Source: a virus
Lineage: Duplodnaviria; Caudoviricetes
Reading direction: 5' to 3' (one strand)
DNA: 64,000 nt
Virus record (IMG/VR): IMGVR_UViG_3300021255_002694
Below the pieces are notes generated by a model. The model worked only from the letters and a program-made list of their open reading frames with translations, had not been told where the DNA came from and searched no databases. A program made the translations under genes and the position numbers. Below, one piece after another: positions 750 through 61,039 of this stretch (position 1 is the first letter of the stretch; each line of letters opens with the position of its first letter).

Positions 750-1217
750 ATGGTTAGAATCACCGAGAGTAAGAAATATACTCTTATAATGAATGGTGCT
801 AGTGGTAATTTATCAGATGAGTTTGAATTCGATAACGTGGCGGATGCCGTTAAGTATGCTTCAAGATGTGATTTATACAACTATTATTTTATTTCGGATG
901 AAAATGGTAATGTAATTAAAAGAGGAAGATGTAATACTGTGAAAGAATCAAAGCGTAATACGCGCCGCAGAAGCATTAGAGAACAGTATTATGCACCTTT
1001 CAACGATGATGTTGATTACACATTTTACCTTGATGAGTTCAAAAATTTTGAAAAGGCACTATCTAATAGCGAAAGAAAACTAAAAGATTTTTCAAGAGAT
1101 GCGAAATATCTCAAAACATCTGAAAACTTTAATGAATACGAAGATGAATATTATCATATTGCAGACAGAGTGAGAGAACTTATTGCAATAATGTCTGAAT
1201 ATGCAGAAAAAATGTAA
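750..1217 (+). CDS. putative head-packaged protein (tag MVRITE|S), possible polyprotein
   Basis: N-terminal tag; internal basic linker with TVKE|S and SIRE|Q. Confidence 0.6.
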   Translation: MVRITESKKYTLIMNGASGNLSDEFEFDNVADAVKYASRCDLYNYYFISDENGNVIKRGRCNTVKESKRNTRRRSIREQYYAPFNDDVDYTFYLDEFKNFEKALSNSERKLKDFSRDAKYLKTSENFNEYEDEYYHIADRVRELIAIMSEYAEKM

Positions 1218-1289
1218 GCTATCACTTTAGTTTGTGTTTATAGATGGTTTGTACATGAATTAGTAATTTATTACAATAATATAACAATA

Positions 1290-1335
1290 AAAGCTGTCAA
1301 TACTACTTGACAGCTTTTACTTTTTATGATATAAT
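1290..1335 (+). promoter_or_regulatory. terminator hairpin overlapping sigmaA promoter
   Basis: AAAAGCTGTCAA/TTGACAGCTTTT; TTGACA 1307, N17, TGn-TATAAT 1330. Confidence 0.75.
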
Positions 1336-1378
1336 ATAAATATGGATACAACTATATAAATACAGGCGGTGATTAAAA

Positions 1379-1747
1379 ATGATGGCTAGAGATATTAAGG
1401 GTTGGGAGATCGAGAATCCGGCTTGGAGAGACTATTCAAAAACAATTTGTACAGAAGATCACTTTTGGAGAGGTATATACGGAAGTGGTTTTTATCTTGG
1501 TGAAGAAATAGAACGTGTGATGTTTGATTATCCAAATATAGCTGATCATTTTTATTATTTGTGGTACAACGGATATCAGCTTGATGTAATTTTTGCATCA
1601 TATAAAATAGATGAGATCAAGAGATTTATCAATAGCCTTAACTTTACAGATTTTAATGCAAGAACTAAATTGTACGTGATAGATGCGGTTACAAAAGAAC
1701 ACTTTGTAGGCAAGGATTTTGAAGATATATTTATAGGTGGTGATTAA
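1379..1747 (+). CDS. hypothetical protein
   Basis: ORF with GGCGGTGA SD; AACTATA at 1350. Confidence 0.75.
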   Translation: MMARDIKGWEIENPAWRDYSKTICTEDHFWRGIYGSGFYLGEEIERVMFDYPNIADHFYYLWYNGYQLDVIFASYKIDEIKRFINSLNFTDFNARTKLYVIDAVTKEHFVGKDFEDIFIGGD

Positions 1748-1749
1748 AA

Positions 1750-2337
1750 TTGTCAGTTGATCGTGTATCGAGATATATAATTTCAAATGGGGAACAGTTT
1801 GTAAAGAATCAAAATGCAACAACCATAACGTCAAATTCAGATGATGCTTACATGTGGTCGCTGAAAACATCTGCTGAAAATGTTTTAGCGGATGCCAGAA
1901 ACAGATCAAGTAATTCTCCACATGCAACAATAGATAATTCATACAAAGTAGAACCTGTTTATATTTATGTAAGCGATATTGAACCAGATATTTCAAATGA
2001 TTTAGATACTATAAAACTATTTGCTGATATTGTTCAGGATTCCGCTGAAAGAGAAGAAAGTCTGCTTGCGCAACTAAGTAAAGTAGATCGTGAACTATCT
2101 GATATTGAACATTTCATAGAATTTGTTGATCTTAACGGTGTTGACGGATTCAGAATATATAAAAAGATGCAATCAATTAGACAAATTCGCAGAGAGATAA
2201 AACACAGACTAAAGATAGTGCAGACAATAAATTCGCAATCCATTGATCCGGAAGTTCTTAAAAGACTTGTAAAAGGATTCGGAAACATCTACTATAAGCC
2301 GAGAGAGGTTGACTTTGATGATATCTTAAAAGGGTGA
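1750..2337 (+). CDS. hypothetical coiled-coil phage protein
   Basis: 195 aa, SD GGTGG, heptad-rich C-half. Confidence 0.75.
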   Translation: MSVDRVSRYIISNGEQFVKNQNATTITSNSDDAYMWSLKTSAENVLADARNRSSNSPHATIDNSYKVEPVYIYVSDIEPDISNDLDTIKLFADIVQDSAEREESLLAQLSKVDRELSDIEHFIEFVDLNGVDGFRIYKKMQSIRQIRREIKHRLKIVQTINSQSIDPEVLKRLVKGFGNIYYKPREVDFDDILKG

Positions 2338-2343
2338 TTTTGC

Positions 2344-2511
2344 ATGGAAGAACACATAAATTTTGGAATTTTTATGAAATATGTAGTAACTTGTGCGACA
2401 CTTGTTTTGATCCTTAAATTCGCTTTTGAAACTTTGCAAGTCTATATAAAAACTCGCGGAGCAAAGAAAGAAGAACATGATCCAGACGATATTTGCGGAA
2501 GAAAACCATGA
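2344..2511 (+). CDS. small membrane protein (55 aa)
   Basis: Translated by hand, MEEHINFGIF...GRKP; one hydrophobic segment; GGGGTGA SD. Confidence 0.55.
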   Translation: MEEHINFGIFMKYVVTCATLVLILKFAFETLQVYIKTRGAKKEEHDPDDICGRKP

Positions 2512-2516
2512 CAAAT

Positions 2517-59079: not shown

Positions 59080-59084
59080 TTTTT

Positions 59085-59348
59085 ATGATGAGATTTTGTG
59101 GAATGATGCCAGAAAGTGAAATTAAAAGGAAATCGGTGTATACTGATCGCAACGGGGATGAAGTAATAATTTATTCAGGACCTAATGGTTGGACTGTGCA
59201 TTATTGTGATAGTACATGCTACAGGGATGAATCAATCGGTACAGATGCAAATTTTGAAAATGCCTATAACTGTGCAAATGAAGAGGTTGGTCCGCTTAAA
59301 ATGCTTACTCATGAGAATGAAGAATGCGAGGTAGATGTCGATGATTAA
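59085..59348 (+). CDS. hypothetical protein
   Basis: AAGGA SD. Confidence 0.7.
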   Translation: MMRFCGMMPESEIKRKSVYTDRNGDEVIIYSGPNGWTVHYCDSTCYRDESIGTDANFENAYNCANEEVGPLKMLTHENEECEVDVDD

Positions 59349-59856
59349 GTATACATTGCGCAGTGGTGTGTTTGAAACAAATTCAAGTTCAAGTCATACA
59401 CTTGTATACAATAAAATCGAAAGTGAGAATATATTTGATTTCAATTTTGAAAAGGTTGATGAAAACGGATTTATTCACATTGAAACACAGTATTTTCATG
59501 ACGATTATAGCTATGTTGAAACACCAACAGAAAAGCTATCTTATCTAATCACTCAAATTGCTCGGAGATGTGTAATTTTTGATGAGTTTGAATATCTGAT
59601 GCCGGAACAAGTAATGTTAAGTCATCAGTTTATTGAATTGAGTAACTATATCAAGGAGAAAACACCTTATGCCGGAATTATAATTGACGGAAAAATAACC
59701 GAAGATAATTGCTACATTGATCATGAATCATGCGAATCAGACTACAAAGAGATTCTTAACCATGTTGAGAACAGAGAGACTGGTGAGTACGATTCTGTCT
59801 CACTATATGATTTCTTATTTAATAAAAATTATTACATTGTTTTGGCTTATTGCTGA
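59341..59856 (+). CDS. FETNSSS-motif protein (paralog of 41165)
   Basis: LRSGVFETNSSSSHT; EKLSY; YIDHES. Confidence 0.75.
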   Translation: MIKYTLRSGVFETNSSSSHTLVYNKIESENIFDFNFEKVDENGFIHIETQYFHDDYSYVETPTEKLSYLITQIARRCVIFDEFEYLMPEQVMLSHQFIELSNYIKEKTPYAGIIIDGKITEDNCYIDHESCESDYKEILNHVENRETGEYDSVSLYDFLFNKNYYIVLAYC

Positions 59857-59939
59857 CGGTAGTTTGAATCGTTATCTTATCTGTCAATATGAATTAGAGT
59901 TTTATTGTAAAATATACATGCAAAATAACAACTATTATG

Positions 59940-59982
59940 AACAATAGCTACTGGAAATTATGTTTCCAGTAGCTATAATTTT
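59940..59982 (+). promoter_or_regulatory. putative late promoter/terminator hairpin
   Basis: AACAATA variant overlaps ATAGCTACTGGAAA/TTTCCAGTAGCTAT. Confidence 0.5.
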
Positions 59983-60003
59983 AAGAAAGGGATTGATTTA
60001 ATT

Positions 60004-60471
60004 ATGAAATTGTTTATTAGAGAAAGCAATATAGATGAATCAGCACAAGATGAACTCTATAGAATTGCAGAGTATGAACTATTACCAGAAACACAACTAT
60101 ATAAGATATCAGAGCGTTGTACTATTGATGAAGATACTTTTGATTTTACTCAAACTGGTACTGCTTGGGGCGGATATATCTGTTATGATATCTATATGGA
60201 GTGGACTGCTGAGTATCTACCGAGAATAGAGGATTTTTATAGAGATAATATTGATGATATTTGGCATAGAGATTGGAAACTGGATGAAATTAAAATATAC
60301 TTTAATATCCATGTTGATGGCGATAAAGTTACTGTAGAAATTGCAGATATGGATATTGTAGAACCTAAAAATTTTGAAAAAGTATTTGATCTTGATGCTC
60401 TTTGTGATGCAATTAGAGAAATTGCTGAAAATTCTGCTAACTATATTCATTCTAAGATCGGAAGCTATTAA
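60004..60471 (+). CDS. putative head-packaged acidic protein (tag MKLFIRE|S)
   Basis: Tag plus IDE|S. Confidence 0.6.
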   Translation: MKLFIRESNIDESAQDELYRIAEYELLPETQLYKISERCTIDEDTFDFTQTGTAWGGYICYDIYMEWTAEYLPRIEDFYRDNIDDIWHRDWKLDEIKIYFNIHVDGDKVTVEIADMDIVEPKNFEKVFDLDALCDAIREIAENSANYIHSKIGSY

Positions 60472-60490
60472 AAATTGGCGGTGATGTAAA

Positions 60491-61039
60491 GTGAAACTTA
60501 TTTTTGAAACTGTTTATGATGTAAACAAAGTTAAAAATCTTATACTGAAACACTTGACAAAATACTATTTTGATAGTTGCGGCGGATATGGAATATCAAA
60601 GAAACAGCAAACAGATTTTGCAAGAGAAGATGCATTAAAAACAATGAATTCAAATGTTGCATATGATGATGAATTTCTCCAAGAAGTTGCTGATTTCTTA
60701 AATTCTATAAGTTATCCTGTTACAGTATATAGAGGTCTTGCAACAGATAATATAAATGACATAAAAACAGGAATTAAATCAGGTGTTCACTGGACTATTG
60801 ATCCGGAGTATATAAAGAATCAAACTAATTTATTACACTTTAAGTATGTAATGATCGGAAAATTCAATGAACAAGATATTGACTTTGAAAAGACTGCAAA
60901 TACATATCTACATTATTCTCTAAATGATCAAAAACATAGATATAATAAATCTCGTGAGATGGAGATATGGGTGAAACAGCGTAAAGAACCAAAAGACCTT
61001 GAAATAGTAACTTTTGAAGATTTCTGTAAGAACTATTGA
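60491..61039 (+). CDS. putative head-packaged ADP-ribosyltransferase-like protein (tag MKLIFE|T)
   Basis: TVYRG, GVHWT, EMEI motifs in ART order. Confidence 0.5.
   Translation: MKLIFETVYDVNKVKNLILKHLTKYYFDSCGGYGISKKQQTDFAREDALKTMNSNVAYDDEFLQEVADFLNSISYPVTVYRGLATDNINDIKTGIKSGVHWTIDPEYIKNQTNLLHFKYVMIGKFNEQDIDFEKTANTYLHYSLNDQKHRYNKSREMEIWVKQRKEPKDLEIVTFEDFCKNY

Follow-up and report, generated by a model that had tools for sequence, protein, structure and literature searches.

The closest described counterpart of the system considered here is the capsid-targeting sequence (CTS) of phage T4, a short N-terminal leader ending in hydrophobic-x-Glu that is carried by the unrelated proteins IPI, IPII, IPIII and Alt and removed by gp21, a prohead protease of family Peptidase S77/U9. 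In T4, gp21 cleaves behind L/I-x-E and itself has a matching site at LIE-9, the 10 N-terminal residues of IPIII are enough for packaging, and the CTS has been proposed as a general loading route for varied proteins in T4-like phages (PMC9026906). Here, we analyzed a 64,000-nucleotide stretch of a virus of the Caudoviricetes (IMG/VR record IMGVR_UViG_3300021255_002694; this whole stretch is called the window, and its positions are used unless another record is named), in which many proteins begin with a leader that usually has six or seven residues and ends in Glu. We consider it probable that this leader is a T4-like capsid-targeting propeptide, cut by an S77 prohead protease, and that the tagged proteins are packaged in the head.

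Other systems share parts of this arrangement. The T-even phages have hypervariable internal-protein loci, in which a conserved leader sits on fast-changing bodies and gene content differs between close strains. In low-GC Gram-positive systems, a dedicated protease can take a short Met-hydrophobic-Lys-Leu extension off the N-terminus. The Prp-cleaved N-terminal extension of ribosomal protein L27 is one such case, and Staphylococcus phage 80alpha reportedly copies it in its capsid and scaffold proteins. The Prp/L27 motif ends Gln-Phe-Phe↓Ala (the arrow marks the cut, or the putative cut, here and below) and is cut by a host cysteine protease. Finally, the huge phages phiKZ, 201phi2-1 and SPN3US package many proteins, among them ejection or inner-body proteins cut after Glu by gp21-like proteases (gp175, gp245). 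Proteases of the phiKZ/SPN3US type require a small residue at P3 (A/S/G-x-E), and their propeptides are mostly 111-254 residues long; SPN3US gp245 prefers Ser at P1', and about 80% of the head proteins of SPN3US are uncut (PMC10052503).

A shared N-terminal leader

The window lies within scaffold_7 (323,500 bp; ENA ERZ28612978) of a sheep-rumen metagenome, with window position 1 at about record position 199,160. The readable part of the genome was assembled by walking along this scaffold through exact-protein matches and amounts to 170,318 nt (53% of the genome) with 294 called genes; unless stated otherwise, the counts below refer to this part. At least 33 of these genes bear the leader, a few weaker cases having been added by eye. 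The original prediction had listed 18 such N-termini in the window, and all are present (Table 1). Sixteen of them belong to clean open reading frames (ORFs) of 67-370 residues that start with the leader. In the gene at 8605 (genes are named by their start positions), the leader is preceded by a 10-residue extension and the motif RRFTE↓S ends at residue 16; a homologue in the related contig G003 starts MIRKLYE↓N, and the alignment of the two proteins starts at the tag. The ORF at 11136 is only 17 codons long and is therefore a remnant rather than a full gene.

The consensus of 30 tagged genes reads Met, Lys/Ile, Leu/Lys, x, Ile, x, Glu, followed by Ser or Asn. Of the 30 genes, 29 have Glu at P1, the residue before the putative cut, and 26 have Ile, Leu or Val at P3; at P1', Ser occurs 17 times and Asn 6 times. 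In 26 genes the leader itself spans six or seven residues, with an overall range of six to nine. A six-column scoring matrix (P5 to P1') trained on the 16 clean cases of the window gave a score of at least 8 to 26 N-termini among the 294 genes; when residues 2-12 were shuffled 500 times, the mean was 1.9 and the maximum 8. Of the genes outside the training set, 10 reached this score (shuffle mean 1.4, maximum 5), as did 6 of 110 genes outside the window, where 0.16 were expected from the frequency of the motif at internal positions. Two cultured related phages, LIS04 and HSE3, yielded 3 of 254 and 3 of 144 genes, respectively, even at a looser threshold of 7. Met-Lys starts are common in low-GC genomes, and the weak matches at 21002 and 47202 (the latter outside the original list) may be accidental. 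However, as an account of the whole set, chance or the composition of AT-rich N-termini is contradicted by the shuffles, by the held-out genes and by the two control phages, and we rule it out as extremely improbable.

The Ser that follows Glu is encoded by TCA or TCT in 10 cases and by AGT or AGC in 8, and all six Leu codons are in use within the leaders; thus, it is the peptide that is conserved and not the DNA. The leader is real, and selection acts on the peptide.

These properties separate the leader from two of the systems introduced above. As in the phiKZ group, a huge phage would package many proteins cut after Glu with Ser preferred at P1', but here P3 is mostly Ile, Leu or Val and leaders have six to nine residues, in contrast to the small P3 and long propeptides of that group, and processed ejection proteins of the phiKZ/SPN3US type were rejected as a match. 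A Prp/L27-type extension was likewise rejected, given Glu at P1 in 29 of the 30 tagged genes: the leaders end in Glu↓Ser/Asn, and none has the Phe-Phe-Ala end. Unlike the T-even internal-protein loci, the tagged genes described here are spread over many genome-wide clusters, each behind its own promoter-in-terminator cassette.

The proteins behind the leader

As originally predicted, the domains that follow the leader are unrelated to one another, with a single similar pair among 33 tagged proteins (BLASTP, 28% identity, E 5e-5), and they are rich in acidic residues (Asp plus Glu 18.9%, versus 16.3% in untagged proteins; p 8e-5). The further suggestion that they form an anti-defence arsenal has no backing in the sequences: among 27 tagged proteins compared with Pfam and/or PHROGs (18 with each), only one had a known domain, a GNAT. 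We also considered an ADP-ribosyltransferase identity for the protein of 60491, which is unsupported by any Pfam or PHROG match.

Several observations place the leader outside the domain that it precedes. In the GNAT protein, position 20 of the Pfam profile aligns to residue 32, so that the domain starts after the 8-residue tag, and in the protein of 20476 the profile phrog_21515 begins at residue 15, past the tag. A 258-residue tagged protein has 65 homologues in metagenomes; across 43 aligned orthologues (38-86% identical), Glu6 and Asn7 are invariant, and the leaders vary in sequence and in length with the pattern kept. In an AlphaFold2 model of this family built on that alignment (mean predicted local distance difference test score, pLDDT, 82), residues 1-7 are coil, with pLDDT below 50 at residues 1-3, and the first helix starts at residue 8. 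Judged from these profiles and this model, the leader is an add-on outside the protein folds. Foldseek, run with the same model against the PDB, found no structure at E 0.001 or better.

Where the two overlap, a contig from JGI is identical to the ENA scaffold except for about 740 extra bases (L011:18770-19607 versus L010:18770-18869). These carry two paralogous tagged genes, starting MVKLINE↓S and MIKIINE↓S, that are lacking in the ENA scaffold. Either tagged genes turn over at the level of strains, or a repeat was collapsed.

Relatives carrying the same leaders

A degenerate DNA pattern combining a ribosome site with the leader matched IMG/VR at 54 stretches. Isolated, chance-like matches made up the majority, but on several AT-rich contigs the leaders were clustered. 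In four related contigs taken whole, 13 of 170, 7 of 93, 5 of 151 and 13 of 307 genes are tagged, with the consensus M-K-L-R-I-N/K-E↓S. The largest, G006 (198.5 kb), provides the best match for 56 of the 294 phage proteins, at a median identity of 42.5%. When orthologous tagged proteins of this phage and G006 are paired, the leaders differ and the Glu junctions align; the homologue of 12857 in G006, for example, starts MKITE↓G, and a homologue of 19124 in another relative, G001, starts MKLTIKE↓E. In the relatives, tagged genes stand directly upstream of the terminase-portal-protease-capsid block.

By capsid protein, the nearest cultured phages are Bacillus phage HSE3, Listeria phage LIS04 and Streptococcus phage GXN1, which have the same type of protease. 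The phage belongs to a Firmicute-type clade of huge phages. Its GC content is 33%, the genes of the window are almost all on the plus strand, and the ribosome sites are of the GGAGG/GAAAGG type; together with the closest cultured phages, these ribosome-binding sites suggest a low-GC Gram-positive host. A megablast search with 10 kb against known phages returned no match, and an IMG/VR search with three proteins of the window and locus gave no relatives.

Head genes, protease and cleavage motif

The head module of G006 encodes a Gp23 capsid protein (E 1e-45), a Portal_T4 protein (E 2e-47) and a Peptidase_S77 protease (E 5e-12, above the cut-off). The protease has 569 residues, with the Peptidase_S77 domain in the first 170 and coiled coil in the remainder, and it aligns end to end with T4-type gp21, including the motifs GEL(D/N)HP and GVSSRG and both N-terminal hydrophobic-x-Glu sites. 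S77 proteases with the catalytic His and Ser are seen in G006, LIS04, HSE3 and GXN1.

The tag motif recurs in these head proteins. When the tag matrix was run along the G006 capsid protein, one site only scored 5 or more, at Glu62. No variation is seen at this Glu among four capsid proteins; it stands just before the mature domain and 21 residues ahead of a conserved VPNLIA motif, in a region equivalent to that of the T4 gp23 cut behind Glu65. Five metagenome relatives have hydrophobic-x-E↓A-(T/S)-N at the same place. Glu62 is thus the predicted maturation site of the capsid protein, marked by the motif of the tags. The protease-scaffold protein of G006 contains 19 hydrophobic-x-Glu-small sites where 3.8 are expected, the densest set in the contig (P 2.5e-8). 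Both of its N-terminal sites, VLIE↓T and L-K/R-L-x-E↓S, occur in 106 of the 120 best protease homologues, and the second is tag-like. The T4-type proteins gp21, gp67, gp68 and gp23 have L/I-x-E sites, and the N-terminus of T4-type gp24 reaches a tag-matrix score of 8.2 in a match ending at Glu10.

The original prediction of a cleavable capsid-loading tag is thus supported by the S77 protease of the relatives and by the occurrence of the motif at their capsid maturation site, protease N-terminus and scaffold. A gp21-like prohead protease and x-x-E sites, proposed there as a check to be made elsewhere in the genome, are present in the relatives; in this phage, the head genes lie outside the 170 kb read. 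A metagenome scan with an alignment of capsid proteins matched relatives but not the capsid contig of this phage. A predicted complex between the protease domain of G006 and residues 1-60 of a tagged protein scored 0.00, which weighs neither way.

Some further observations concern head genes. A very acidic protein of 370-430 residues in the head module (G006 L104:3970-5085, with homologues in L131, L132 and L135) has Arg/Lys-rich linkers flanked by Glu-Ser and may be a core protein cut into pieces. The capsid and protease genes of several relatives (G006 L104:7364-8605; L134, L133) look truncated or split in simple ORF calls. In this phage, the large terminase is apparently split into adjacent ORFs of 433 and 417 residues (L018:13835-16400, minus strand; record about 22.2-24.8 kb), distant from any portal or capsid gene; the 417-residue ORF is 30% identical to a 663-residue terminase-like protein of G006. 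We also considered as a protease a 149-residue protein encoded beside a NADAR gene (L009:14932-15381; about 106272-106721 in window numbering, past the window end), but it was rejected, having a weak match to Peptidase_S78 (E 0.003, below the cut-off) and none to S77. Peptidase_S78 is the family of HK97-type prohead proteases.

Putative promoters placed in terminators

Perfect host-type promoters (TTGACA, 17 nt, TG-n-TATACT-ATA) stand upstream of the untagged genes 1379, 6718, 12151, 13639, 14726 and 16915. The hexamer ACTATA is found in two settings in the window, either within such host-type promoters or behind an A-tract at the foot of a hairpin. In the second setting, the order is A-tract, ACTATA at the 5' foot of the hairpin, a T-run that gives the whole the shape of an intrinsic terminator, GAAAGG and then a tagged gene (Table 1). 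The claim that the tagged genes use a promoter class other than TTGACA was confirmed: hairpin-linked ACTATA is associated with tagged genes (per-gene odds ratio 8.8, p 1.3e-4) and TTGACA promoters lie upstream of untagged ones. Many tagged genes sit within operons without a cassette of their own.

Outside the early TATACTATA -10 box, ACTATA sites lie upstream of tagged genes, of a tail-fibre operon, of a long-fibre operon and of gene 5306. Both operons and gene 5306 follow a site of the hairpin type. The tail-fibre operon encodes untagged proteins; the long-fibre operon encodes fibre proteins of 595 and 2,223 residues; and the protein of 5306 has a domain in common with a small protein encoded beside the G006 capsid gene. 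In G006, ACTATA stands upstream of the tail-sheath gene, the terminase gene and a tagged gene. We infer from this distribution that ACTATA would be a late promoter, with early read-through stopped at the hairpin and late transcripts starting inside it.

Table 1. Tagged genes and example cassettes in the window, with leader, protein length and upstream signals
Feature	Coordinates	Strand	Leader	Length (residues)	Remarks
Tagged gene	750..1217	+	MVRITE↓S	155	ACTATA at 691 and hairpin upstream
Cassette example	5247..5280	+			A-tract, ACTATA overlapping 5' foot of 14-bp hairpin, T-run; upstream of gene 5306
Tagged gene	8203..8580	+	MIKLVVE↓S	125	ACTATA at 8149, foot of hairpin 8148-8186
Tagged gene, longer leader	8605..8934	+	..RRFTE↓S	109	GTG start; Glu is residue 15
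Tagged gene	8998..9228	+	MIRKLEE↓S	76
Tagged gene	9353..10465	+	MIRLIME↓S	370	ACTATA at 9285
Tagged gene	10599..10868	+	MIKLIE↓N	89	Upstream terminator-like hairpin 10528-10563
Tagged gene	10923..11126	+	MIKRICE↓T	67
Remnant	11136..11189	+	VIRLLHE↓S	17 codons
Tagged gene	11318..11869	+	MIKIINE↓N	183	ACTATA at 11247
Promoter-in-terminator cassette	12787..12824	+			Upstream of tagged gene 12857
Tagged gene	12857..13144	+	MIKLIKE↓G	95	ACTATA at 12787 joined to hairpin 12792-12824
Tagged gene	13156..13482	+	MIKLISD↓S	108	P1 is Asp
Tagged gene	18683..19099	+	MKLIYE↓N	138	Operon begins behind ACTATA at 18264
Tagged gene	19124..19771	+	MILTYE↓N	215	Very acidic
Tagged gene	20476..20988	+	MKLMIRE↓S	170	phrog_21515 profile from residue 15
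Tagged gene, weaker match	21002..21268	+	MKLQNE↓E	88
Tagged gene	21268..21912	+	MKLKINE↓S	214
Tagged gene	60004..60471	+	MKLFIRE↓S	155	Upstream hairpin and GAAAGG
Tagged gene	60491..61039	+	MKLIFE↓T	182	GTG start; no Pfam or PHROG family

Proposed mechanism and alternatives

We propose that the leader acts like the T4 CTS, as an N-terminal propeptide recognized by a T4-type (Peptidase S77, gp21-like) prohead protease. The tagged proteins would be made late, from ACTATA promoters at the feet of terminator hairpins that would shield the genes from early read-through, and would be held by the leader inside the prohead, in its scaffolding core. The leader would then be clipped by the protease at hydrophobic-x-Glu↓Ser/Asn, leaving the mature proteins in the head for delivery together with the DNA. 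It follows from this proposal that the phage would have the same protease as its relatives, that the tags would be cut and the proteins packaged and injected, and that they may have some role in the next host. The tags had originally been described as sequence-distinct from, and merely analogous to, those of T4. This is contradicted by the cutting rule, which is the hydrophobic-x-Glu rule of T4 gp21, and by the occurrence of gp20, gp21 and gp23 in the clade. Because the rule is the same and the T4-type genes are present, a T4-homologous system, greatly expanded, is most likely. Like that of T4, it would combine a short leader on unrelated proteins and variable cargo genes with T4-type portal, protease and capsid genes, and in the relatives the motif is shared among the tags, the capsid maturation site, the protease N-terminus and the scaffold.

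Several points weigh against this proposal. At six or seven residues, the leader is shorter than the 10-residue CTS and has another sequence (M-K-L-R-I-N-E in the relatives), and its role may be confined to cutting, without any targeting. Whereas the T4 internal proteins are basic, the cargo here is acidic, and 33 tagged genes in 53% of the genome are far above any known packaged set, T4 having a handful. Other differences from T4 are the fusion of the protease to a coiled-coil scaffold in the relatives and the probable low-GC Gram-positive host. For all of the tagged proteins, cutting and packaging are predictions from sequence. The S77 link rests on relatives at about 42% identity because the phage's own head genes lie outside the 170 kb read, and none of the 120 best homologues of the G006 protease was on its contig. 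Further, LIS04 and HSE3, both read whole, have the S77 protease type and almost no tags; thus, the protease alone does not predict a tag set, and the large set may be special to the rumen/gut branch.

Late in infection, the T4 prohead protease reportedly also cleaves a cytoplasmic protein of the host (PMC12991175), so that cutting would not prove packaging. One could suppose that the protease cuts the leader of proteins that never become head cargo, the tag being a timing device by which cytoplasmic proteins are switched on or off late, or the tagged proteins serving as decoy substrates. The shortness of the site relative to the CTS and the very large number of tagged genes are in keeping with such a role. 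However, the known substrates of T4 gp21 are components of the prohead core (PMC9026906), the tagged genes of the relatives adjoin head genes, and an unstructured stub of six or seven residues would hardly be expected to inhibit so many unrelated folds, and we regard a timing role as unlikely.

If the head protease did not cut the leader at all, it could be a signal for some other partner, such as a degron for a host AAA+ protease, a handle for a chaperone or sorting factor, or a substrate for an enzyme that modifies N-termini. N-terminal ClpX recognition motifs are similar to the Met-basic-hydrophobic-hydrophobic pattern with which the leader begins. Such a partner would leave unexplained the near-invariant Glu followed by Ser or Asn, as well as the recurrence of this motif across capsid protein, protease and scaffold in the relatives, and no candidate partner gene was seen beside the tagged clusters; we think it improbable. 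The recurrence of ACTATA, hairpin, T-run and GAAAGG ahead of tagged genes raises another explanation, in which genes are shuffled by a mobile cassette of promoter, hairpin and ribosome site, and the common start came along with it and was kept by recombination or translation initiation with no function in the protein. Cassettes joining promoter, early gene and stem-loop in T4-type phages are comparable, and the indel between co-occurring strains holds two tagged paralogues. However, the leader codons are not conserved, many tagged genes lie inside operons away from any cassette, and orthologues retain the Glu junction while the DNA and the residues of the leader change. A pure DNA cassette was rejected on the codon evidence and is, in our estimate, very unlikely; the cassette may move genes, yet it leaves the peptide unexplained. 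A capsid-targeting propeptide thus remains the explanation that we favor.

Genome context

The two ends of the scaffold overlap by 55 nt inside the gene for the 2,223-residue fibre protein, which indicates that the genome is circular. The window differs from the ENA scaffold by a single base, at 11238 in an intergenic A-run, and was therefore taken from a second, near-identical assembly.

Upstream of the window lies a type I-E-like CRISPR-Cas set (L001:418-4228; record 192.3-196.1 kb) with Cas5- and Cse-type genes and a 910-residue protein in which a single frame encodes Cas2 (CT1978), Cas3 HD and helicase domains; the stretch read around it showed no cas1. At window 30001-31407 (minus strand, 468 residues) and 30031-31368 (plus strand, 445 residues), two ORFs overlap almost completely on opposite strands, and neither has a Pfam match. 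A PemK-type toxin domain occurs in a phage protein of 359 residues (L019:6976-8055; record about 30.7-31.8 kb).

Implications

T4 already shows the principle of a cleaved leader that loads proteins into the head, and phiKZ-like phages show it in another form. The system described here stands apart in its leader, its fused protease-scaffold protein, its probable host group, its cassettes and its much larger repertoire; in the literature, we found no paper linking capsid targeting to huge rumen phages. In its fullest form, which we put forward as tentative, the idea is that huge rumen/gut phages of low-GC bacteria use a portable seven-residue address (M-K-L-R-I-N-E↓S) to send more than a tenth of their gene products into the capsid. 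The cargo genes would be self-contained modules, each bringing its own tag, ribosome site and late promoter, the last built into a terminator foot, and dozens of acidic, strain-variable effectors would be delivered with the DNA, possibly the largest injected protein arsenal known for any phage.

If this is true, the tags would reveal the virion-delivered proteome of an uncultured clade from its genomes, and would provide a ready list of candidate first-minute effectors, mostly without a known family. The seven-residue tag would be usable for loading foreign proteins into the capsids of Gram-positive phages, and the promoter-in-terminator cassette would be a compact way to keep genes strictly late. 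The T4 capsid-targeting principle would reach well beyond the Straboviridae, and the packaged protein set would grow to at least 33 genes in half of a genome, with turnover at the strain level.

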